Of a stretch of 64,000 bases of DNA, positions 3,221 to 60,056 are shown piece by piece. The notes beneath the pieces are model-generated. The model was not told where the DNA came from and did not search any database. It saw only the letters and a list, made by a program, of their open reading frames with translations. Where the stretch lies: contig JAJDDM010000072.1 of NCBI GenBank assembly GCA_029260315.1, positions 1,357-65,356 of the forward strand, in the 5' to 3' direction. Within the stretch, counting starts at the first letter, position 1. Every line of letters begins with the position of its first letter. The DNA comes from Phycisphaerales bacterium (GTDB lineage: Bacteria > Planctomycetota > Phycisphaerae > Phycisphaerales > UBA1924). The translations under genes and the position numbers were made by a program.

Positions 3221-4636
3221 ATGGCCCACTACGACCTCCTCGTCATCGGCTCCGGACCCGCCGGCTACAAAGCCGCCATCCAGGCCGCCAAGCTCGGCCG
3301 CCGCGTCTGCGTCGTCGAAAAGGAACGCGTCGTCGGCGGGGCCGCCATCAACACCGGCACCATCCCCTCCAAGGCCCTTCGCGAGGCCATCCTGACCCTC
3401 GCCGAGCGACCCGTCGTCATGCCCCGCTTCGACGACTTTACCGCCGCCCGCAACGCCGTGTTCTCCAACCTCCGCGGCTGCTGCTCCAAGATCATCGCCA
3501 GCGAGGTCAACATCGTCCGCGAGCACTTCGCGCGCAACGGCGTCGACCTCCGCGAGGGCTGCGCCCGCTTCGTTGATGACAAGACCATCGACGTCGGCTG
3601 CCAGGACTCCCACGTCAAACTCACCGCCGACAAAGTCGTCATCGCCGTCGGCACCACCCCGGCCCGCCCCGAGGGCGTCGCGTTCGACGACCGCACGATC
3701 ATCACCTCCGACGAGATCGTCGATCTCCAGTTCCTGCCCCACTCGATGATCGTCGTCGGTGGTGGGGTCATCGGCACCGAGTACGCCAGCATGCTCAGCG
3801 CCCTGGGCGTCAAGGTCACGCTCATCGAAGGACGCGACCGCCTGCTCGACTTCGTCGACAGCGAGATCACCGAGGCTCTGCAATACCACCTCCGCCAGAA
3901 CGGCATGACTCTCCGCCTGGGAGAAAAGGTCACTAGGATCGAGGCCATCGACGCCCCGCCCGCCGCGCGCACCGCCGACAACCGCATGGCCCAGGCCACG
4001 CTCGATTCCGGCAAGACCCTGCGCGCCGACTGCCTGCTCTACGCCATCGGCCGCCAGGGCGCGACCGACGCGCTCGACCTCCAGAACGCGGGCCTTTCCG
4101 CCGACAACCGCGGCCGCATCAAGGTCAACGACAACTACCAGACCGAGGCCAGCCACATCTACGCCGTGGGCGATGTCATCGGCTTCCCCGCCCTCGCCAG
4201 CACCTCCATGGAACAGGGCCGCCAGGCGGCGTGCCACATGTTCGGCGAGTCCTGCCACAAGATGGACGAACTCCTGCCCTACGGCATATACGCCGTGCCC
4301 GAGATCTCCATGGTCGGCTGGACCGAGCAGCGCCTCACCGACGAGGGCATCCCCTACGAGTCCGGCATCGCCCAGTACAAAGAGATCGCGAGGGGCCAGC
4401 TCCTCGGCGACGAGATCGGCATGCTCAAGATCCTCGTCCACCAGGAGTCCCGACACATTCTCGGCGTCCACGCCATCGGCACCGGCGCGACCGAGCTCAT
4501 CCACATCGGCCAGACCGCCCTCGCCTTCCACGCCACGATCGACTACTTCGTCGACACCGTCTTCAACTACCCGACCCTGGCCGAGTGCTACAAGGTCGCC
4601 GCCTACAACGCCGTCAACAAACTCCTCGGCGTGTGA
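3221..4636 (+). CDS. sthA: Si-specific NAD(P)+ transhydrogenase (soluble pyridine nucleotide transhydrogenase), 471 aa
   Basis: Internal ATG of ORF 2471..4636 gives MAHYDLLVIGSGPAGYKAAIQAAKLGRRVCVVEK, an FAD Rossmann fold. GGAAINTGTIPSK lacks the CxxxxC redox disulfide of LpdA, as expected for SthA. The C-terminal dimerisation domain is present. Confidence 0.85.
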   Translation: MAHYDLLVIGSGPAGYKAAIQAAKLGRRVCVVEKERVVGGAAINTGTIPSKALREAILTLAERPVVMPRFDDFTAARNAVFSNLRGCCSKIIASEVNIVREHFARNGVDLREGCARFVDDKTIDVGCQDSHVKLTADKVVIAVGTTPARPEGVAFDDRTIITSDEIVDLQFLPHSMIVVGGGVIGTEYASMLSALGVKVTLIEGRDRLLDFVDSEITEALQYHLRQNGMTLRLGEKVTRIEAIDAPPAARTADNRMAQATLDSGKTLRADCLLYAIGRQGATDALDLQNAGLSADNRGRIKVNDNYQTEASHIYAVGDVIGFPALASTSMEQGRQAACHMFGESCHKMDELLPYGIYAVPEISMVGWTEQRLTDEGIPYESGIAQYKEIARGQLLGDEIGMLKILVHQESRHILGVHAIGTGATELIHIGQTALAFHATIDYFVDTVFNYPTLAECYKVAAYNAVNKLLGV

Positions 4637-4978
4637 CGGGTCACCACGAGAAAACACAGAGAGCACAGAGGGCACAGAGGGCACAGAGGGCACAGAGGGC
4701 ACAGAGGGCACAGAGGGCACAGAGGGCACAGAGGGCACAGAGGGCACAGAGGGCACAGAGGGCACAGAGGGCACAGAGGAAGAATATTCACCACGGAGTT
4801 GCGCGGAGTTCAAGGTGCGGAATCGGATCGTCCTCGACACCGTTCCTTCCGACTCCGTGTCACTCCGTGAAACTCCGTGGTGAACTCCTTGCTTTTCTCT
4901 CGTGCCCTCTGCGCCCTCTTGTGGTTCATTCCTGCTCTTCGCTTTTCGCTTTTCACTTTTCGTTTTCTACCCTCCCCC
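4637..4978. repeat. Nested imperfect palindrome filling the sthA-holB spacer (repeat family G)
   Basis: TTCACCACGGAGT at 4787-4799 mirrors ACTCCGTGGTGAA at 4872-4884. The CACAGAGGG units on the left mirror CCCTCTG units at 4905-4920. Four (G/A)CTTTTC heptamers lie at 4941-4967. Confidence 0.8.
4655..4780. repeat. Tandem repeat, 14 x 9 bp (CACAGAGGG)
   Basis: Counted directly: the units start at 4655 and recur every 9 nt to 4772. The first unit is CACAGAGAG and the last is CACAGAGGA. The repeat is open in all frames (the TEGTEG, QRAQRA and PSVPSV artefact ORFs). Confidence 0.97.
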
Positions 4979-18325: not shown

Positions 18326-18399
18326 TGGGCGATACAGGACTCGAACCTGTGACCTCCTCGATGTCAACGAGGCGCGCTAGCCAGCTGCGCCAATCGCCC
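18326..18399 (-). tRNA. tRNA-Val (anticodon GAC)
   Basis: Hand-folded cloverleaf: acceptor GGGCGAT/ATCGCCC, D stem GCGC/GCGC, anticodon stem CCTCG/CGAGG with loop TTGACAT, T stem ACAGG/CCTGT with loop TTCGAGT. 74 nt; CCA is not encoded. Confidence 0.93.
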
Positions 18400-21479: not shown

Positions 21480-21553
21480 GCCTCGGTAGCTCAGCTGGAT
21501 AGAGCAGCGGTCTTCTAAACCGCAGGTCGCAGGTTCGAGTCCTGCCCGAGGTG
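21480..21553 (+). tRNA. tRNA-Arg (anticodon TCT)
   Basis: Hand-folded: D stem GCTC/GAGC, anticodon stem GCGGT/ACCGC with loop CTTCTAA, T stem GCAGG/CCTGC with loop TTCGAGT, acceptor GCCTCGG/CCGAGGT (G1-U72 wobble), discriminator G. Confidence 0.88.
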
Positions 21554-31915: not shown

Positions 31916-32114
31916 CTTCGCCCGGAGGGCGCACTCGCGTTGCCAGGGACTTCAGTCCCTGGACGGCGGCATTCGCTCATTCTCGCCCGGAGGGCGGACG
32001 CGCGGCTCGAAACATGGCGACTGTCTCGTCCGCCCTCCGGGCGGCAGAGATCACTGAAGACTCCCTCCAGGGACTGAAGTCCCTGGCAACGAGCGCGCGC
32101 CCTACCGGGCGAAG
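31916..32114. repeat. Nested composite palindrome (repeat family H) between convergent genes
   Basis: Outer arms 31916-31962 and 32067-32114 are reverse complements and include CCAGGGAC-ttca-GTCCCTGG. Inner arms are CGCCCGGAGGGCGGACG at 31984-32000 and its complement at 32027-32043. Confidence 0.85.
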
Positions 32115-37453: not shown

Positions 37454-37559
37454 GAGCGGAGGGTAGGGACACGGCGATTGGCTGAGAACCATGTTCGCAA
37501 CGCTGCTCCGCAGCGGAGGACAGGCTCTTCTTCGGATCACCACTCTACGATTGGCTGGA

Positions 37560-38699
37560 ATGCGGATTCTGCTTGCTAATCCCCGGGGCTTCTGTGCGGG
37601 CGTGCAGATGGCGATCGACGTCGTCTCGCAGGTCGTCGACTTGTTCGAGGGCGAGACGATCTACGTCTACCACGAGATCGTGCATAATCGCCATGTGGTC
37701 AGACGATTTCGGGATTCGGGGGTCGTCTTCGTCGAGGACATTGGGGAGATTCCCGAGGGCTCGGTCGTCGTCTTCAGCGCCCACGGCGTGAGCCCGGCGG
37801 TGCGTGCCAAAGCCTCGGCGAGGGAGCTGCGGGCGATCGACGCGACCTGCCCTTTGGTCACGAAGGTCCACGCCGAGGCGATTCGCTACGCCAAGCGAGG
37901 CGATCAGATTCTGCTCGTCGGGCACGCCGAGCATCAGGAAGTGGTCGGCACCCGCGGCGAGGCGCCGGACGCGATCCAGATCGTCGAGTCGCCCGAGGGC
38001 ATCCCCAATCTCACGATCCGCGACCCCGAGAAGCTCGTGTATCTCACCCAGACGACCCTCAGCACCGACGACGCGGCGGTCATCATCGACGCGTTGCGCG
38101 AAGCATTCCCGAATATTAAGAGTCCTCCGAGCGAGGATATCTGCTATGCGACGACGAACCGCCAGCACGCGGTGCGGCGGCTCGCGCCCGAGGCAGACCT
38201 GACGCTGGTGGTAGGGTCGAAGAACTCGTCGAACTCGGTGCGGCTGACGGAGATCAGTGAGAATGTCGGGACGCCCGCGCGACTCATCGACGACGCCTCA
38301 GACTTGGATTGGAACTGGTTTGAGGATGTGTCCCGTGCCACCGACCGTGGCTCTGCACGGTTAGTGTCGGATGTCAAGAAACATGCAGATAAAGCACCAA
38401 CCGCTCAAAGCAGCGGTCGGTGGCACGGGATGACGGTGCTCGTGACCGCCGGCGCCAGCGCGCCCGAAGACCTGGTCGCGGGCGTCTGTCGGGCGCTGCT
38501 GGAACGCCTCGGCGGCACCATCGAGCAACGAGAGGTCTTCAGCGAGGACGTCGAGTTCAATCTGCCCGCGGCGTTGCGCAAGGAGATGGGCCGGCGGGGG
38601 TTGACGCCCGAGCCGGCCCGGATCGGCACGCCGAGGATCACGCGCGAGCTGTACGGCGGCGTGCCGCTGACGGTGAGCTGTCGAGCGGGACCGGAATAG
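37560..38699 (+). CDS. ispH: 4-hydroxy-3-methylbut-2-enyl diphosphate reductase
   Basis: MRILLANPRGFCAGV, SAHGVSP, DATCPLVTKVH, LLVGHAEHQEV, VGSKNSSNS and VTAGASAPE are present. It contains a 34-codon insertion (see the mobile element at 38329-38432). Confidence 0.92.
   Translation: MRILLANPRGFCAGVQMAIDVVSQVVDLFEGETIYVYHEIVHNRHVVRRFRDSGVVFVEDIGEIPEGSVVVFSAHGVSPAVRAKASARELRAIDATCPLVTKVHAEAIRYAKRGDQILLVGHAEHQEVVGTRGEAPDAIQIVESPEGIPNLTIRDPEKLVYLTQTTLSTDDAAVIIDALREAFPNIKSPPSEDICYATTNRQHAVRRLAPEADLTLVVGSKNSSNSVRLTEISENVGTPARLIDDASDLDWNWFEDVSRATDRGSARLVSDVKKHADKAPTAQSSGRWHGMTVLVTAGASAPEDLVAGVCRALLERLGGTIEQREVFSEDVEFNLPAALRKEMGRRGLTPEPARIGTPRITRELYGGVPLTVSCRAGPE
38329..38432. mobile_element. MITE-like element (family E) inserted in-frame in ispH: 100 bp with perfect 17-bp terminal inverted repeats, flanked by a TG/TG direct duplication
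   Basis: TCCCGTGCCACCGACCG at 38331-38347 is the exact reverse complement of 38414-38430. TG lies at 38329-38330 and at 38431-38432. The centre is AT-richer. Confidence 0.85.
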
Positions 38700-38817
38700 A
38701 ACCGAACGGGCTCGTTGTTCGTTCTGGGCCACACGTCGACGATGCGAGTCTTGAACTGAGCGACGGGTGTGCGCGGTTCAACCTCATTGGGACAAGCTCC
38801 CAGGAGAGGAGCTTGTC

Positions 38818-39603
38818 ATGATGCCTATGCGGCGAAACTGGCGGGGCCCGCGAGCCGGAGCGTTGGCGTTCACGACGATCGTTGGACTCTGTCTGGCCGT
38901 GGGCGGCTGTTCGTCCCCGTCGAGGTCGGGCGGGGGGCCCGCGCAGTCGGTCAATGAGATGCACCTGCTCGGCTCGGGGGTCCACCGGGTCGACAGCGCC
39001 CCCGACGACTGTCCCGTGTGCGCTGTGTACGAGCGCAACCACGGGAGCGTCGTGCGGGTGCGTGTGCCCGGCGGCGTCGGGGCGGGTGTCGTGGTCTCCG
39101 CTTCGGGGGACATCATCACCAACGCGCATGTGGTCGGTGAGAATAAGCTCATCGTCATCGAGACCTATCACGGGACGATTGTCCGCGGGCATGTCGAGCG
39201 GGTCTGGAAAGAGGCCGATCTCGCGATCGTGACCTCCGACTCAGGCGACGTGCATTGGTTGCCCATGGCGTTTGGGCCCGCGGCGTTCCCGCGGGTGGGG
39301 ACCACGACCTACGCCATCGGGCATCCCGTGGGGCTGGGGTGGACCGTGACCCAGGGGATTATTTCGGGCCGGCGAAGAGCCGGCGAGGTCGGCCCTCTCG
39401 GGATGATCCAGACAGACGCCGCGGTCTCGCCCGGGAACTCAGGCGGACCGCTCCTTGACGAGCAGAGCCGTTGGGTCGGCGTCGTCTCGTCGAAGCTCGT
39501 TGGGCCGGGCCTGGAGAACGTCTCGTTCGCCGTGCCGATCGTGGAGGTTCGCCGGTTCTACGAGGAATCGACGGCGAGCCCGGTTACTGGCGGGGTCAAC
39601 TAG
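38818..39603 (+). CDS. trypsin-like serine peptidase, lipoprotein
   Basis: ATG 38818 follows GGAGAGGA. Lipobox LAVGGCSS. ITNAHVV (His), DLAIV (Asp) and SPGNSGGPLL (Ser) are present. Confidence 0.85.
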   Translation: MMPMRRNWRGPRAGALAFTTIVGLCLAVGGCSSPSRSGGGPAQSVNEMHLLGSGVHRVDSAPDDCPVCAVYERNHGSVVRVRVPGGVGAGVVVSASGDIITNAHVVGENKLIVIETYHGTIVRGHVERVWKEADLAIVTSDSGDVHWLPMAFGPAAFPRVGTTTYAIGHPVGLGWTVTQGIISGRRRAGEVGPLGMIQTDAAVSPGNSGGPLLDEQSRWVGVVSSKLVGPGLENVSFAVPIVEVRRFYEESTASPVTGGVN

Positions 39604-39698
39604 CCGCGCGCAAGCAACTGCCGGCGGCTGGTGCGGGGCGCCATGATCGACCCTCGCTCGCACTACGATGGTCCGCCAACCCGTCGCAGTGCCATCGA

Positions 39699-41045
39699 AT
39701 GAACCACCCCGCCAGCCACATCTTCGCTTTCACGCCGGATTCGCTCGTTGAATGGTGCGGGGATCGCGGCATGGCGGCGTACCGCGCCCGCCAAATCCTC
39801 GGGTGGGTCTATCAGCGCGGCGTGATCGATCCGGACGCGATGTCCAACCTCGCCAAGCGGGACCGTGAAGTGCTCGCCAACGAGATGACGTTCATTTCCG
39901 GCGACATCCTGAGCCATCAGGCGGCGACCGACGGGACGCGCAAGATGCTCGTGGAATGGAGAGACGAGTCAGACCCACGGAGCCGCGAGCGCAAGCTCGC
40001 GATGGGTCATCCAATCGCCGGCTCGCTTCCGATTCTGCAAGGCTCCTCCGACGGAGGCGATCCAACGCGCCAGACCGAGTGCGTGATGATCCCCGCCGAG
40101 CCGCACGGGCGGGACGCCCGTGCCACCGGGGCGAAAGAAACTCGCGCGGACGAATCGCGCATCCGTCGCACCGCCTGCATCTCCAGCCAGGTCGGCTGCC
40201 CCGTCGGCTGCAAGTTCTGTGCATCCGGCCTCGGCGGGCTCGATGGGAACCTCTCCGCAGGTCGCATCGTCGAGCAGGTCTGGCTGCTGGACCAACTCGT
40301 GAAGGGAAATCTGGTTGAGGGTAGATCGACTCTCCGAGCCGATGCGAGGATTGAGGGTAGATCGGCTCTCCGAGCCGATGCGATGGATGAGCCAGATCAG
40401 AGAGATTCGACAGCAACCCAAGACCAATCGGCTCGGAGAGCCGATCTACCCAGGATCACCAACATCGTCTTCATGGGCATGGGCGAGCCCCTGGCCAACT
40501 TCCAGAGCGTCGTCCACGCGGTCCGCACGATCGCGGCGGATTGGGGCATGGGCATCGGTGCCCGCCGCATCACCATCTCGACGGTGGGTTTGCCCAAGGC
40601 GATCGAAAAACTCGCCGAGCAACTCGAGCTGCCGGTGACGCTGGCGCTGAGCCTTCACGCGCCCAACGACGAGCTTCGTCGGGAGCTGATTCCGTGGGCG
40701 GAGTACACGACGATCGATGAGCTGTTGCGGGCCTGCCGGGCGTGGTTCGACAAGGCCGGGCGGGAGATCACGCTGGAGTACATTCTTCTTGGCGGCGTGA
40801 ACGACCAGGCCGAGCACGCGGGGCAGTTGGCGGGCGTCGCGAAAAGCCTGCGGGCGAACGTCAACCTGATCCGGTACAACGAGGTGAGTGGGTTGCCGTA
40901 TGCGCGGCCGACCCACGCGGATGTGCGCCGGTTCCAGGAGATCCTGCGCGAGCGGGGGGTGAACGCGCACATCCGGACGAGCCGGGGACGGGATATCGCC
41001 GCGGCGTGCGGGCAGTTGCGGCATGAGACCGCAGGGGCGAGATAG
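39699..41045 (+). CDS. rlmN: 23S rRNA (adenine2503-C2)-methyltransferase, radical SAM, 448 aa (about 100 aa longer than usual)
   Basis: Internal ATG 39699 of ORF 39471..41045. YRARQILGWVY, SSQVGCPVGCKFCASG (CxxxCxxC), NIVFMGMGEPL, ISTVG, LALSLHAP, EYILLGGVND, NLIRYN and CGQL are present. Confidence 0.92.
   Translation: MNHPASHIFAFTPDSLVEWCGDRGMAAYRARQILGWVYQRGVIDPDAMSNLAKRDREVLANEMTFISGDILSHQAATDGTRKMLVEWRDESDPRSRERKLAMGHPIAGSLPILQGSSDGGDPTRQTECVMIPAEPHGRDARATGAKETRADESRIRRTACISSQVGCPVGCKFCASGLGGLDGNLSAGRIVEQVWLLDQLVKGNLVEGRSTLRADARIEGRSALRADAMDEPDQRDSTATQDQSARRADLPRITNIVFMGMGEPLANFQSVVHAVRTIAADWGMGIGARRITISTVGLPKAIEKLAEQLELPVTLALSLHAPNDELRRELIPWAEYTTIDELLRACRAWFDKAGREITLEYILLGGVNDQAEHAGQLAGVAKSLRANVNLIRYNEVSGLPYARPTHADVRRFQEILRERGVNAHIRTSRGRDIAAACGQLRHETAGAR
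39969..40073. repeat. In-frame insertion 1 in rlmN, containing a REP family A copy
   Basis: ACGGAGCCGCGAGCGCAAGCTCGCGATGGGT, with the palindrome at 39984-40001, matches the RayT-flanking repeats. It encodes SDPRSRERKLAMGHPIAGSLPILQGSSDGGDPTRQ. Confidence 0.8.
40101..40163. repeat. In-frame insertion 2 in rlmN, containing a family B hairpin
   Basis: CACGGGCG-gga-CGCCCGTG at 40104-40122 is followed by CCACC, as in 54338-54361. It encodes PHGRDARATGAKETRADESRI. Confidence 0.75.
40319..40451. mobile_element. In-frame insertion 3 in rlmN: REP/REPIN-like family D (two direct and one inverted unit)
   Basis: GGGTAGATCG(A/G)CTCTCCGAGCCGAT lies at 40319-40343 and 40355-40379. The reverse complement lies at 40427-40451. 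Confidence 0.88.
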
Positions 41046-41057
41046 CGGGCAAGGGCC

Positions 41058-41222
41058 AAAACGGAGCCGCGTGCGCAAGCACGCGAGAGATCGCCCGGGG
41101 TCCATGGGGCGTCGGTTCTTGCGAGCGATTGCAAGTCTGAACGACTTGAGACCCTTGACGCTCCCTCGCGAGCTGGCGCTCGCGGCTCCGTTTGTGCGGA
41201 ACGCGCTCGCGGCTCCGGAGGC
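41058..41222. repeat. Cluster of REP family A copies between rlmN and hrpA
   Basis: 41058-41088 (stem CGCGTGC/GCACGCG), 41165-41194 (CGCGAGC-tggc-GCTCGCG followed by GCTCCGTTTG) and a half copy at 41203-41222. Confidence 0.8.
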
Positions 41223-52865: not shown

Positions 52866-53444
52866 ATGAGCCGAGCGGTGCCAGCCAGCCAAGCCATGTC
52901 CTCGAAGGATCGTGGCGAGCCGGTGTTGCCGCGCGTCGCCGCCGGCGAGCGGGCCGCCATGCGCGAGTGCATGGAGCGATACAGCGGGCTCGTCTGGTCT
53001 CTCGCCCGCCGCCAACTGGCCTCGCCATCCGAAGCCGAGGACGCGGTGCAGGACATCTTTCTCGACGTCTGGAAGAGCGCCGCCCGCTTCGACGGCGCGA
53101 TCGCCTCCGAGGTCACCTTCATCGCCATGATCGCGCGGCGAAGACTCATCGACCGCCGCAGAAGAGTCGCCGGATCCAAGGAGAAGACGGTCCTCGAAGA
53201 CACCGCGCCACCCGCGGCGAGCCAGTCCAATGCCGACAACGCCGACGATGTCTCCTCGGCCGTCAGCGCGTTCGCCAAGCTCAGCGACGATCAGCAGCGG
53301 GTGCTGCGCCTGTCCATCCAGCAGGGCCTCAGCCACGAGAGGATCGCCGGCGTCACGGGCATGCCCTTGGGCACCGTCAAGACCCACGCCCGCCGCGGCC
53401 TGATCAAGCTGCGCGAGCTGGTCGCTTCCGGAGGTGACTCGTGA
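52866..53444 (+). CDS. ECF-type RNA polymerase sigma-70 factor
   Basis: This is the 3' third of ORF 51714..53444. Region 2 contains DAVQDIFLDVWKSAARF. Region 4 contains LSDDQQRVLRLSIQQGLSHERIAGVTGMPLGTVKTHARRGL. The start is ATG 52866 or 52896. Confidence 0.85.
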   Translation: MSRAVPASQAMSSKDRGEPVLPRVAAGERAAMRECMERYSGLVWSLARRQLASPSEAEDAVQDIFLDVWKSAARFDGAIASEVTFIAMIARRRLIDRRRRVAGSKEKTVLEDTAPPAASQSNADNADDVSSAVSAFAKLSDDQQRVLRLSIQQGLSHERIAGVTGMPLGTVKTHARRGLIKLRELVASGGDS

Positions 53445-54271
53445 GCCCCCTGAACGATCAGAACCGAGACGGGTCGAACCCCGACTGGCTCGATCTCGCC
53501 TGCGACGCCGCGACGGGCGACCTCGCCACCGCGGATCTGGCGCTCTGCGAGGCTTCGCGCCACGACCACGCGGCGGAGTTCGACGAGTTCGATCGCATCG
53601 CGGCGGCCCTCGCAGTCGGGCTCACGCCCATCGAGCAGGCGCCCGGCGACGTCCGGGATCGACTGATGCGCACGCTCCCGGCCATCGAGGCGGAGCCGAT
53701 CGAGTCGCGCCCACTGAGAGTGTCCCCACCGGCGAGTTCGGCGCCGAAAGCCGCGAGTCTCTGGCGGAGCCGCGCGATCGCCGGCTGGTCGATCGCTGCT
53801 CTGCTGGCCCTAGTCGCCGGCGTGATCCTGATCGTCCGGGCGACACCCCCGCAAGCACCCTCGCCCGCCGACGCCCGCCGCCAGCTCATCGCCCGCGGCG
53901 CAACACCGATCGCCTGGGGAGAGTGGTCCGATCCATCCGTCCAGGCCGTCGTGCAGGGCGTGCGCGGCGACGTGGTCTGGGACGACCAGCGCCAGGAGGG
54001 CTACATGCGCTTCGTCGGCCTGCCCACCAACGATCCGAGCGAGGCCCAATACCAGCTTTGGATTCTCGACGGTCGATACGAAGATCCGCTCTCCCAACGC
54101 GTCAGCGGCGGGGTCTTCGACATCCCGCCCGGCGCCGAGGAATGGGTCGTCCCGATCCGCCAAGGGATGCCCATCGAAGACGCCGTGGGCTTCGCGATCA
54201 CCGTCGAACGCCCCGGCGGGGTCTGGGTCTCAGACATGTCCCAGCGTGTGGCCATCGCGCTTAAGGGCTAG
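53441..54271 (+). CDS. anti-sigma factor (RskA-like)
   Basis: The GTG start overlaps the sigma stop (GTGA). A single central TM segment (WSIAALLALVAGVILIV). The C-terminal domain contains YQLWILDG...GFAITVERPGG, typical of the anti-sigma-K RskA family. Confidence 0.8.
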   Translation: MSPLNDQNRDGSNPDWLDLACDAATGDLATADLALCEASRHDHAAEFDEFDRIAAALAVGLTPIEQAPGDVRDRLMRTLPAIEAEPIESRPLRVSPPASSAPKAASLWRSRAIAGWSIAALLALVAGVILIVRATPPQAPSPADARRQLIARGATPIAWGEWSDPSVQAVVQGVRGDVVWDDQRQEGYMRFVGLPTNDPSEAQYQLWILDGRYEDPLSQRVSGGVFDIPPGAEEWVVPIRQGMPIEDAVGFAITVERPGGVWVSDMSQRVAIALKG

Positions 54272-54392
54272 GTCCTGTTTGACGGATCGGTGGAACGGGC
54301 GTCTCGCCCGTTCGTATCGTGGATTATCTCCAACACGCACGGGCGAGACGCCCGTGCCACCGCTGTCTTGTGATCCGTCAAACAGAACCTAG
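54268..54392. mobile_element. 125-bp palindromic element (family B core) between convergent genes
   Basis: The arms are CTAGGTCCTGTTTGACGGATC...GGTGGAACGGGCGTCTCGCCCGT and the reverse complement. CTAG lies at both ends. The element overlaps both stop codons. Confidence 0.8.
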
Positions 54393-54992
54393 AGCCGCAT
54401 CGCGATTCGCGCCCGCCTCGCTATCGTCCATCGGCCGCAGATAGGGCGTCAGGATCTCGGGCACGCGTCGCAGCCCCCGCCGCCTCGCCTTGTCCACGGC
54501 ATACCGCATCGAGTCGTGCATGCGCTTCCGCACGCGGTCGGTGACGTTGAACTCCAGCCGCTCCATCGTGTCGATCGCGAACCGCCAGGCGTGGTACTCC
54601 TCGACGCACCGCAGGCGATGGGTGTCGAAGCCGATCGCATGGTGCCCGATCTCGTGCAGGAAGATCGCGCACGACATCGGTCCCTTCGGGCGCGGCGCCT
54701 CGATCAGCCGGCTGACGCTGCCGTCCCGATAGAGCACCTGCCACGCGACGCCGGACATGCTGGATCGCCACTTGCGGACTCGCACGCCGTGCGTTCGCAG
54801 CATGTCCCGCGTGAGCTGGTCATACCGCTCGCTCATCGCCGGCTTCGCTGCGGGCGCAGGAACACTTGGGCAGGCGGGCGGCGCCGGAAGCACCTCGCCG
54901 ACGCCGACCGATGCATCGTCGCGTCCGGAACGCGGTCGTCGAGGAACGATCCGAGGCTTTGTCGGCTTGAGAATGTCCCACAGCGTCAGCAC
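54378..54992 (-). CDS. hypothetical protein with a HExxH zinc-metallopeptidase-like motif
   Basis: 204 aa. FLHEIGHHAIGF is the only recognisable motif. It lies 16 nt downstream of fmt on the same strand. Confidence 0.6.
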   Translation of the reverse strand: MLTLWDILKPTKPRIVPRRPRSGRDDASVGVGEVLPAPPACPSVPAPAAKPAMSERYDQLTRDMLRTHGVRVRKWRSSMSGVAWQVLYRDGSVSRLIEAPRPKGPMSCAIFLHEIGHHAIGFDTHRLRCVEEYHAWRFAIDTMERLEFNVTDRVRKRMHDSMRYAVDKARRRGLRRVPEILTPYLRPMDDSEAGANRDAALGSV

Positions 54993-58216: not shown

Positions 58217-58951
58217 GTGGACGCTCTCGCCATCATTCCCGCCCGCTACGCCTCCGAGCGATTCCCCGCCAAGGCCCTCGCCCGCGACACCGGCAAGCCC
58301 CTCATCCAGCACGTCGTCGAGGCCGCCCAGGCCTGCGACGCCATCGACCGCGTCGTCGTCGCCACCGACGACGAGCGCATCGCGTCGGCCGTCAGTTCCT
58401 TCGGCACAGAGTCCGTCATGACCCGCGCCGACCACGACAACGGCACCAGCCGATTAGCAGAAGCCGCCTGGACCCTCGATCTGCGCCCCGACACCATCGT
58501 CGTCAACATCCAGGGCGACGAGCCCGAGATCGAGCCCGCCGCCGTCGACGGCGCGATCGCACTCCTCGAATCCAGCGCCTGCGACATGGCCACCGCCGCG
58601 GCACCCATCCTCTCCCGCGCCGATCACCTCGACCCCAACGTCGTCAAGGTCGTCCTCGACCGCAACAGCCGCGCCCTCTACTTCTCCCGCGCCCCGATCC
58701 CCTACCCGCGCACCCTCGGCGTCACCCCCCTACGCCACATCGGCCTCTACGTCTACCGCTGCGACTTCCTCGAACGTTACGCCGACCTGCCCTCGACCCC
58801 GCTCGAAAAGGCCGAGCGCCTCGAGCAGCTCCGGGCATTGGAGCACGGGCACACGATTGGCGTTCATCTGACCGATGCGGCGTGGTCGGGCATCGACACC
58901 CCCGAGCAATACGCCGCATTCGTCGAGCGCTGGACAGCCCGTGAGCGCTGA
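58217..58951 (+). CDS. kdsB: 3-deoxy-manno-octulosonate cytidylyltransferase (CMP-KDO synthetase)
   Basis: IIPARYASERFPAKAL, GKPLIQHV, NIQGDEP, LEQLRALEHG. GTG start. Confidence 0.9.
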   Translation: MDALAIIPARYASERFPAKALARDTGKPLIQHVVEAAQACDAIDRVVVATDDERIASAVSSFGTESVMTRADHDNGTSRLAEAAWTLDLRPDTIVVNIQGDEPEIEPAAVDGAIALLESSACDMATAAAPILSRADHLDPNVVKVVLDRNSRALYFSRAPIPYPRTLGVTPLRHIGLYVYRCDFLERYADLPSTPLEKAERLEQLRALEHGHTIGVHLTDAAWSGIDTPEQYAAFVERWTARER

Positions 58952-58957
58952 CCCGCC

Positions 58958-59097
58958 GGTGCCACTGGTGGCTCGCCCACCAGTGCGATCCACCAGGTGC
59001 ATTCATCCACGCCAAGACCGTGCCACCGAGATGGCCGGTCCTCCGGCCATCTCGGTGCTTCTTCACACCGTGCCGCTGGTGGCTCGCCACCAGTGCC
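58958..59097. repeat. Three tandem hairpin repeats (family F) in the kdsB-mqn spacer
   Basis: GGTGCCACTGGTGG-ctcgc-CCACCAGTGC at 58958-58986. A perfect 15-bp stem CACCGAGATGGCCGG-tcct-CCGGCCATCTCGGTG at 59024-59057. CGTGCCGCTGGTGGCTCGCCACCAGTGCC at 59069-59097. Confidence 0.85.
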
Positions 59098-59135
59098 GAA
59101 CGTAGAGACCTCCTCCCAACCCATACCCTCACCTC

Positions 59136-60056
59136 ATGCCCACTCTCACCCTCGCCCACTCCCCCGACGCCGACGACATGGCCATGTGGTGGCCCATCAC
59201 TGGCATGCGAGATCCCCAAGGCGATCCCATCGCCGGCGAGCTTGGAAGTCCCGTCCTCGACACCGCCCGCTGGCGCTTCGATCCCATCCCCGACGACGTC
59301 CAGCGCCTCAACCGGCGTGCGATCGACACCGCCGACCTCGACATCACCGCCATCTCCGCTCACGCCTACCCGCACGTTCGCGACCGCTACGCCATCACCG
59401 CCTGCGGCGGCTCCTTCGGCGAGGGCTACGGCCCCAAACTCGTCGTCGCCGCCAGCAGCCCGCACGCCTCATTAGACCATCTATTCGAAGGCCGGAGCCC
59501 GACCCTCGCGGTTCCCGGCCTGCACACCACGGCGTACCTCGCCCTCTGCGTGCTGCTCGGACGCCGACTCGACACCCACGAACGCCTGTTCAGCGAGATC
59601 CCCGGCGCCGTTGCCTCCGGCGAGTTCGACGCCGGCCTGCTCATCCACGAGGCCCAGCTCTCCTTCGCCGACCTCGGCCTGCGCCCCCTCGCCGATCTCG
59701 GCTCGCTCTGGAAAGACCGATTCGATTCGATCCTCCCTCTCGGCCTCAACGTCATCGGGCGCGATCTCGATGCGCGATTCGGCGAGGGCTCGCTCGCCGA
59801 GGTCTCAAGGATCCTCCGCGACTCGGTCGCTTGCGCCATGCAACGCCGCGCCGACACCAAGACCTTCCTGCGCCTCCACGCCGAGCGCCGACCAGAATGG
59901 CTCGACGATGCACTCGTCGACCGCTACCTCGACATGTACGTCAGCGAGATGACATTGGACATGGGCGCCGTCGGCATCGACGCTCTCACAACGCTGCTCA
60001 CCCACGGCGCACGCCTCGACCTCTGCCCCGACCCCGCCGAGATCCACACCTACTGA
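59136..60056 (+). CDS. MqnA/MqnD family protein (futalosine-pathway menaquinone biosynthesis)
   Basis: LTLAHSPDADDMAMWW at the N-terminus and a periplasmic-binding-protein-like fold length of about 300 aa. I cannot separate MqnA from MqnD by eye. Confidence 0.7.
   Translation: MPTLTLAHSPDADDMAMWWPITGMRDPQGDPIAGELGSPVLDTARWRFDPIPDDVQRLNRRAIDTADLDITAISAHAYPHVRDRYAITACGGSFGEGYGPKLVVAASSPHASLDHLFEGRSPTLAVPGLHTTAYLALCVLLGRRLDTHERLFSEIPGAVASGEFDAGLLIHEAQLSFADLGLRPLADLGSLWKDRFDSILPLGLNVIGRDLDARFGEGSLAEVSRILRDSVACAMQRRADTKTFLRLHAERRPEWLDDALVDRYLDMYVSEMTLDMGAVGIDALTTLLTHGARLDLCPDPAEIHTY

Follow-up and report, generated by a model that had tools for sequence, protein, structure and literature searches.

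The ispH (lytB) gene in a 64-kb stretch of DNA from a Phycisphaerales bacterium (GenBank assembly GCA_029260315.1, contig JAJDDM010000072.1, positions 1,357-65,356; 64,000 nt in all, hereafter the window) contains 34 additional in-frame codons, which very probably represent one copy of a Phycisphaerales family of repetitive extragenic palindromic (REP) doublets, similar to REPINs, residing in an insertion-tolerant loop of the IspH protein. The same segment had been described from the letters of the window alone (hereafter the sequence-only reading) as a 100-bp miniature inverted-repeat transposable element (MITE) with perfect 17-bp terminal inverted repeats (TIRs) and a TG duplication. In the explanation favoured here, each unit has CGTGC as its 5' head, and a hairpin whose stem measures 11 bp comes next; the doublet comprises one such unit, a variable spacer, and an inverted unit. 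This inversion gives the outer arms the appearance of a terminal inverted repeat.

The inverted repeat is exactly as the sequence-only reading described it, i.e. TCCCGTGCCACCGACCG and its exact reverse complement, perfect over 17 nt (Table 1). The 17-nt repeat has no other match within the window when up to three mismatches are allowed. The pairing runs on imperfectly to give 36-nt arms with 83% complementarity, and the window copy folds as RNA into one long hairpin, the energy for positions 38325-38436 being -61.1 kcal/mol, compared with -35.7 +/- 3.6 kcal/mol for shuffled sequences (z = -7.0; none of 200 shuffles was as good). Profile searches with the family described below delimit a core of 94 nt (CGTGCC...GGCACG); the presence of a repeat of ~100 bp is thus upheld, whereas the family-defined element is slightly shorter. 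In unit 1, the head CGTGC (38334-38338) is followed by the 5' arm of the first hairpin (HP1), CACCGACCGTG (38339-38349), the loop GCTCTG (38350-38355), and the 3' arm CACGGTTAGTG (38356-38366), which departs at two positions from the family consensus CACGGTCGGTG. Unit 2, which contains the second hairpin (HP2), reads on the plus strand as G, CACCAACCGCT (38395-38405), the loop CAAAGC (38406-38411), AGCGGTCGGTG (38412-38422), and GCACG (38423-38427).

Table 1. Features of the ispH element, its host gene, and similar units in the window.
Feature	Position	Strand	Basis or remark
ispH (lytB) coding sequence	37560..38699	+	379 aa starting at MRILLANPRGFCAG; Pfam LYTB and E. coli IspH structure matches
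34 extra codons, SRATDRGSARLVSDVKKHADKAPTAQSSGRWHGM	38331..38432	+	Joins helix 252-264 to strand 292-297 in the model
Left arm of the perfect 17-nt inverted repeat	38331..38347	+	Sequence
Right arm of the perfect 17-nt inverted repeat	38414..38430	+	Last bases GGGA may be host sequence
REP doublet (REPIN-like), family-defined core, 94 nt	38334..38427	+	nhmmer with the family profile, E 4e-19; alignment includes 52 other copies
REP unit 1	38334..38366	+	Single-unit profile, E 4e-8; HP1 pair covariation across the family
Variable spacer, TCGGATGTCAAGAAACATGCAGATAAAG, 39% G+C	38367..38394	+	Unalignable among copies
REP unit 2, inverted	38394..38427	-	Single-unit profile, E 1e-9 on the minus strand; HP2 pair covariation
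Three REP-like units with head C[C/G]GTGC and CAC...GTG hairpin; stems differ (9, 15, and 9 bp)	58959..59100	+	Apparently intergenic

The 102-nt insertion corresponds to 34 in-frame, translatable codons that have no counterpart in E. coli IspH, and its conceptual excision yields ...WNWFEDVTVLVTAGASAPE. As the sequence-only reading had stated, the 66-nt core between the arms is AT-richer than its surroundings: its G+C content is 50% (39% in the 28-nt spacer), compared with 65% for ispH and 67% for the window. The G+C content at third codon positions (GC3) amounts to 0.53 in the insert, compared with 0.85 in the remainder of the gene, a contrast that points to a foreign origin of the insert and to an absence of coding adaptation. 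Readings of the segment as an intein, an intron, or a terminator were rejected: the 34 residues are without motifs, no Rfam intron model matches, and there is no T-run on the sense strand. A single terminator-like match at the insert is antisense and within chance expectation. The Rfam scan of the window gave no family match for the element; matches far below threshold were to plant and animal miRNA hairpin models and are meaningless.

The host gene encodes IspH, with a Pfam LYTB score of 287 bits and matches to E. coli IspH structures at E 6e-93. An upstream ATG at 37491 is likewise open for this open reading frame (ORF). An NCBI protein from a metagenome-assembled genome (MAG), P0001, is identical to the window IspH, and the homologues are from Phycisphaerales. 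When the protein is aligned with E. coli IspH, residues 259-292 (34 aa) are without counterpart, the alignment breaking at chain residue 268 and resuming at 270; the exact insertion boundaries in ispH are not resolvable. An AlphaFold model built with 112 homologues has an overall pLDDT of 88, falling to 49-59 over residues 261-290, and superposes on E. coli IspH (3KE8/3SZU) with TM scores of 0.91-0.93 and an rmsd of 2.0 A. The insert (residues ~259-291) joins helix 252-264 to strand 292-297, which runs into the TAGASAP motif. We take this low-confidence segment as a flexible loop, with the IspH fold kept. C12, C97, C195, H42, H75, E127, T165/166, S223-N225, and S300 are invariant in the 112 sequences. 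In E. coli IspH structures, the cysteines bind the cluster and the remaining residues the substrate; the three cluster cysteines, the substrate-binding residues, and the trefoil fold are therefore all retained. Structure modelling had been proposed as a way to place the loop relative to the Fe-S cluster. The model does define the insert as a low-pLDDT segment between the two secondary-structure elements, whereas the placement relative to the cluster follows from topology only. Since the insert lies at the N-terminal end of the strand and the active site at its C-terminal end, this topology suggests a peripheral position.

Members of the element family were identified in related genomes and metagenomes. 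Reference genomes were scanned with the pattern CCCGTGCCACCG N{40,70} CGGTGGCACGGG, a range that excludes the window copy itself (gap of 74 nt). This yielded two 85-nt copies, both in L007 (a Phycisphaerales MAG) and nearly identical to the window copy over their right 35 nt. With the family profile, 8 copies were identified in 8 kb of L007, lying between or beside genes for a thiolase, dnaJ, and groEL and an ORF for a helix-turn-helix protein. The scan matches in L008-L011 were discarded, as they look like chance palindromes. A metagenome search pattern with 22 specified bases, based on the element's conserved right end, matched at least 120 stretches; among the matches listed, only two are in ispH, both from the species of L004. 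The fetched loci (861 kb) contain 162 copies detected by the profile, 61 of which are full length (83-133 nt). Each copy is laid out as CGTGC, HP1 (CACCGACnnnn, loop GCTYTG, nnnnGTCGGTG), a variable spacer, HP2 (CACCGACnnnn, loop CARAGC, nnnnGTCGGTG), and GCACG. The REP unit is therefore 34 nt long, with an 11-bp stem containing covarying pairs and a conserved tag, CGTGC (GTGC), that is neither GTAG nor CGTC. HP2 is an inverted copy of HP1 in the 53 aligned copies, and the spacers measure 20-45 nt. The ends CGTGCCACC and GGTGGCACG are conserved in the family; the prediction that the TIR would recur beyond ispH is borne out by members with these ends in related genomes and metagenomes, the organism's own genome being covered by the window only.

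The loop-proximal stem positions vary in a compensatory manner between subfamilies (CGTG/CACG, CATG/CATG, TTCA/GAAG, and others). In the 53 copies, 94.8% of cells are paired under a two-hairpin model, with 109 cells altered on both sides and a covariation score of 0.243, whereas for an end-to-end model the values are 86.2%, 55 cells, and 0.162, respectively. The right-end positions fixed in the search pattern are conserved by ascertainment, whereas the covarying positions were N in that pattern. The higher covariation of the local hairpins favours the two-hairpin architecture over end-to-end pairing. These comparisons indicate that the element consists of two inverted REP-like units and that the 17-nt 'TIR' represents the outer arms of the units plus their heads.

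Element lengths are uniform modulo 3, five of the six reading frames are usually open, and among 47 evaluable non-redundant copies only those in ispH lie in supported coding sequence. Because of this distribution of lengths and the confinement of supported coding copies to ispH, the family is considered ordinarily extragenic, the ispH copies being survivors of selection in a tolerant site. L053, which GC3 had suggested as another, fourth copy in coding frame, was rejected, since none of its ORFs matches Pfam and their composition is antisense-like. Partial tandem reiterations of the head motif (GTGCCA/TGGCAC) adjoin element ends at L007 829-4620, L004 7760-7790, L094, and L064 9320-9355; the head 6-mer is enriched ~15-fold in the 25-nt flanks of family copies, partly owing to arrays of units.

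The family is linked to REP-associated tyrosine transposases (RAYTs). Our tblastn search of the fetched loci with the product of the annotated E. coli rayT gene as query detected homologous genes in L064/L115 (E 4e-10) and L066/L099 (E 9e-10), and a truncated RAYT gene in L051/L027/L082. The L064 and L066 proteins score 95.8 and 92.3 bits, respectively, with the NCBIfam REP_Tyr_transpos equivalog model (cutoff, 80), exceed the Pfam Y1_Tnp cutoff, and possess the HUH motif and the YIHxNP tyrosine motif. On these two metagenome contigs, each intact RAYT gene is located between one forward and one inverted family unit, e.g. CGTGCCACCGACCTCTGCCTTGAGAGGTCGGTGCC ... gene ... GCACCGACCTCTCAAAGCAGAGGTCGGTGGCACG in L064. 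Since the loci had been fetched solely for holding the element, this adjacency is far beyond chance. A RAYT gene flanked by REPs is the defining arrangement of REP/REPIN-RAYT systems (PMC3337134, PMC5581495). Single family units frame the RAYT genes in inverted orientation; the doublet thus corresponds, in miniature, to a RAYT gene together with the REPs on its two sides. All named homologues of the family RAYT are from Phycisphaerales/Phycisphaeraceae MAGs, except for one labelled Planctomycetes/Planctomycetota only.

By analogy with the REP/REPIN-RAYT systems of E. coli and Pseudomonas, a RAYT-type transposase acting on single-stranded hairpin DNA probably copied the element into ispH without a target-site duplication (TSD). 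The landing site would be the single insertion-tolerant internal loop of IspH, leading from the last helix of the third domain to the beta-strand that enters the TAGASAP diphosphate-binding motif. By chance the copy is in frame and lacks stop codons; it is therefore most likely transcribed and translated as a flexible surface loop of ~31-34 residues in a still working enzyme, and would persist as a tolerated selfish insertion rather than as an adaptation. It appears old enough to have left a remnant in a relative with ~86% IspH identity and has been lost cleanly in another relative.

The IspH loop was compared among relatives, i.e. the 120 best IspH homologues. The loop comprises 5-6 aa in 75 of the 120, and the others carry inserts of up to ~70 aa (the loop segment as measured reaches 76 aa); it is the sole internal IspH site with large insertions in this set. 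Excision of the window insert therefore restores the usual short loop, as the sequence-only reading had anticipated, and the empty sites that it suggested looking for in close relatives were found in P0003 and P0065. Relatives vary at this site, and a segment homologous to the insert is not common to all of them. The closest relatives (clade A) show three states: the element is full in the window, L001 (P0002, 86% identity) keeps just its diverged right end, CAAAGCAGCGATCAATGGCACGGA, and L002 (P0003, 89% core identity) has an empty site reading WFDSAEIVLVT. This pattern implies at least one clean loss or two gains. At the level of loci, empty sites are seen in L002 and L132. In a second group, clade B (P0007, P0010, P0013, P0017, and P0059; ~75% identity to the window protein), a homologous element occupies the same loop in the same orientation and frame; P0065, which is nested in clade B (95.7% identity to P0010), and its neighbour P0069 are without the element. 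Filled, remnant, and empty sites among relatives thus constitute comparative evidence for gain and loss.

The two clades probably acquired their elements by independent insertions, which we favour over one ancient insertion, because clades A and B are non-sister in the neighbour-joining tree, with many short-loop lineages between them, and because their HP2 stems belong to different subfamilies (CCGCT/AGCGG and CTTCG/CGAAG, respectively), each of which is also present at unrelated loci. The spacing between the element ends and the WF and TVLV codons also differs from clade to clade. A single insertion in the common ancestor of both clades, followed by vertical inheritance and many losses, is the less likely history, even though it accords with the identity of loop, orientation, and frame and with the very long vertical persistence reported for REPIN-RAYT systems.

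Inserts at this site in other clades were read as DNA in three further cases, and two of these are visibly built of repeats or hairpins. The 43-aa insert of L139 (P0113) contains two direct hairpins with GCTCGG-type loops, CGTGGCCGC-GGCTCGGA-GCGGCCACG and CATGGCTGTG-GCTCGG-CACAGCCATG, and represents another REP-like family in this loop of IspH. The L137 (P0014) insert consists of 9-mer and 7-mer tandems around a hairpin. The long insert of L138 contains some tandem-like repeats, and its fold is no better than those of shuffled sequences. The occurrence of unrelated inserts in the same loop marks it as a permissive site.

Several points weigh against reading the insert as a tolerated selfish REP doublet. 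Neither a second significant family copy (family profile search) nor a RAYT gene (tblastn with E. coli RayT) is present in the 64-kb window, and any activity of the family in this organism would be judged from one copy in 64 kb. The mobilization of doublets by RAYT is inferred from adjacency and analogy, and the head CGTGC is non-canonical with respect to GTAG. A second ispH copy elsewhere in the genome is possible; translation of the insert and activity of the enzyme, both most likely, are predicted from the DNA. The window insertion appears old, its inner arms having changed, yet its outer arms are still perfect. Similarly, in the orthologous ispH copies of L003 (10766-10853) and L004 (7787-7874), a perfect 14-bp HP1 has been kept via two C-G to G-C swaps. 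Perfect arms and compensatory swaps are not obviously predicted by simple neutral decay. Selection on the hairpin and template-switch correction of quasi-palindromes are both possible causes; template switching during replication can also make compensatory-looking changes in quasi-palindromes.

The perfect arms and the L003/L004 swaps raise the question whether the hairpin, as an RNA or DNA structure in the ispH message, or the protein loop has become functional and is kept by selection. Retention of the insert in clade A from before the window and L001 lineages diverged, its retention in several clade-B species across many samples, and its identical orientation and frame in both clades would agree with such exaptation. 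We nevertheless regard it as improbable: the insert has been lost without replacement in the nested close relatives P0003 and P0065 (the latter 95.7% identical to an insert-bearing protein), the insert has a low pLDDT and no codon adaptation, decay of HP2 is seen in L003 and L134, quite different sequences occupy the same loop in other clades, and the swaps might also have arisen by template switching as noted. A bolder proposal, to which we give slightly less credence still, is that the loop is a preferred REPIN landing site, hit independently in the two clades with one and the same orientation and frame, and with hairpins that are actively maintained, as the perfect outer arms and the clade-B swaps would suggest. 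If true, a REP doublet would have a role in an essential gene, e.g. as an mRNA structure tuning ispH-rlmN expression or as a standing RAYT substrate.

The sequence-only reading of the insert as a MITE with 17-bp TIRs and a duplicated TG target, which in the classical sense would make it a deletion derivative of a DDE-type insertion sequence (IS), is very improbable by comparison with the REP-doublet explanation. Its attractions are the perfect 17-nt inverted repeat with TG on both sides (38329-38330 and 38431-38432), the small size, the AT-richer core, and the multi-copy nature of the family; the 17-nt repeat and the conserved family ends are indeed of the kind expected of MITE TIRs (~15-30 bp). 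However, no TSD was detected: in 63 copies, flanking direct repeats of 2-4 nt occur at the permutation expectation at each of 25 boundary offsets. The TG dinucleotides are present at both ends, and the chance probability of such a pair flanking the window copy is ~1/16. Moreover, the right junction carries GGGATGACGGTGCTCGT, which is also what L133 has at its empty site (GGG ATG ACG GTG CTC), so that the right-hand GGGATG matches host DNA. Part of the 17-nt right arm (GGGA) may therefore be host sequence, and the true boundary is uncertain. Because the family is without TSD and the right junction equals the L133 empty site, the 'TG duplication' is best read as coincidence. No target motif was apparent either, the flanks having no conservation beyond a C/G extension of the inverted repeat. 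In addition, covariation supports two internal hairpins over terminal pairing, and no DDE-transposase IS with the same ends was found in the 861 kb of fetched loci, in which the only transposases bounded by family units are RAYTs (HUH/Y1 type). The MITE label thus holds insofar as the insert is a short, non-autonomous inverted-repeat element present at many other loci, and fails as regards a TSD-forming element, given the two-hairpin architecture and the RAYT partner. Least credible of all is a chimeric repeat join created by assembly or binning: although the window copy is from a single assembly and P0001 is one member on one contig, the insert is exactly in frame in an otherwise intact gene, the independent MAG L001 holds a diverged remnant at the same site, and the clade-B version is found on at least 24 contigs from JGI, ENA, and other samples, so that insertions at this site are no assembly artefacts.

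Other repeats were observed in the window. The three REP-like units listed last in Table 1 have an ORF that stops at 58944 on one side and a menaquinone-biosynthesis ORF (59136-60056) on the other; they share the design of the ispH element units and give no significant match to the family profile. The rlmN gene (~39696-41045, plus strand), a neighbour of ispH, contains two in-frame inserts, neither of which is found in RlmN of its closest relatives. One of them (40315-40451, ~35 aa) is made up of three GTAG-tagged REP units, GGGTAGATCGGCTCTCCGAGCCGAT, two direct and one inverted. The other (40100-40150) is specific to the window, EPHGRDARATGAKETRA, and contains the hairpin GCACGGGCG-gga-CGCCCGTGC followed by CACCG; 11 nt (CCGTGCCACCG) are common to this insert and the ispH element's head. 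In-frame repeat insertion thus appears also to have taken place elsewhere in this genome. Four further copies of the rlmN-type GTAG-tagged unit, three direct and one inverted, are located at 1515-1698. Just downstream of an anti-sigma RskA-like ORF (53441-54271) is a nested palindrome (54254-54406; outer arms of 35 nt and inner arms of 37 nt) with two ACGGGCG-nnn-CGCCCGT hairpins. The region 4628-4806 consists of ~14 tandem copies of the 9-mer CACAGAGGG and is followed by a 23-nt inverted repeat (4787-4884); a block of this type, with 9-mer tandem, hairpin, and 7-mer tandem, constitutes the IspH-loop insert of P0014 (L137). Long imperfect inverted repeats are present at 31921-32108 (46-nt arms, 87%) and at 41059-41193 (44-nt arms, 82%), the latter directly after the rlmN stop codon. 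An ORF for a trypsin-like peptidase (Pfam Trypsin_2; 38767-39603) separates ispH and rlmN in the window; in the relatives examined, rlmN comes directly after ispH or is separated from it by a ParDE pair. The only Rfam matches above the gathering score in the window are tRNA genes at 18326-18399 (minus strand) and 21480-21553 (plus strand).

For Phycisphaerales (Planctomycetota), these data document a REPIN-RAYT system whose head, CGTGC, is non-canonical, REP biology having been worked out mostly in Proteobacteria. They also provide a natural example of selfish palindromes lengthening proteins, in which one loop of an essential Fe-S enzyme has taken up at least two subfamilies and several unrelated inserts. 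For annotation, extra segments of conserved enzymes in high-GC MAGs may be REP-derived, which calls for caution; for IspH engineering, the loop offers a site that tolerates at least 34 residues (up to ~70 in relatives).

Among known systems, REPINs are REP doublets that form hairpins and are associated with RAYT transposases (Bertels & Rainey 2011, PMC3116915, PMC3337134; Nunvar 2010 and Ton-Hoang 2012 treat REP/RAYT, as cited in PMC3116915 and PMC3337134), and a REP unit is by definition a short imperfect palindrome of 20-40 nt bearing at one end a conserved, unpaired tag, canonically GTAG (PMC3733652). The Phycisphaerales family resembles these systems in having two inverted short palindromic units, a less conserved spacer, many dispersed copies in the family at large, RAYT genes flanked by their own REP units, no detected TSD, and insertion/loss polymorphism among relatives. 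It differs in its head (CGTGC instead of GTAG) and in its hosts (Planctomycetota instead of Proteobacteria); the ispH copy is, moreover, intragenic and in frame, with no RAYT gene or second copy nearby in the window, and the mobility of the family is read from sequence comparison only.

REPs within genes are not new. Di Nocera et al. 2013 (PMC3733652) described 'REP-decorated' ORFs carrying intragenic GTAG- or CGTC-tagged REPs, with singlets and dimers inside ORFs of known proteins (dimers typically add 20-30 aa) in several phyla, including the PVC group (Opitutus terrae and Rhodopirellula baltica). The ispH element likewise places REP units inside the ORF of a known protein, but ispH/lytB is absent from the genes in the supplement of that study and the tag here is CGTGC. 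The CGTC repeats were reported without a dedicated transposase (PMC3733652), whereas the Phycisphaerales family has units flanking RAYT genes. Rickettsia palindromic elements (RPEs) reside in frame in genes for working proteins, at positions regarded as fold-compatible (Ogata et al. 2000, as cited in PMC10969869 and PMC3733652). The resemblance to the ispH element, an in-frame palindromic insert in each case, is functional only: RPEs are larger (~150 bp for RPE-1) and occur in an alphaproteobacterial intracellular parasite, the accounts given in these citing papers report no RAYT link, and in-frame insertion is described there as frequent, whereas in the Phycisphaerales family only the ispH copies lie in supported coding sequence. 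Since in-frame REPs, REP dimers, and RPEs were already documented (PMC3733652, PMC10969869), the word 'remarkable' applied to the insert by the sequence-only reading was an overstatement; in-frame insertion of this kind is known, and the modest interest lies in the Phycisphaerales REPIN-RAYT family and in the repeated use of one IspH loop. Bacterial MITEs such as Correia/NEMIS, RUP, and ERIC (reviewed in PMC10969869) are taken as IS-derived and typically have TSDs (PMC10969869). The Phycisphaerales family is like them in small size, terminal inverted repeats, lack of coding capacity, and occasional in-frame fusion to a host ORF, and unlike them in the absence of a TSD, the double-hairpin design, and the Y1/HUH transposase partner. 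By the features compared, the ispH element is best placed with the REP/REPIN-RAYT systems, as a variant with a head of its own.

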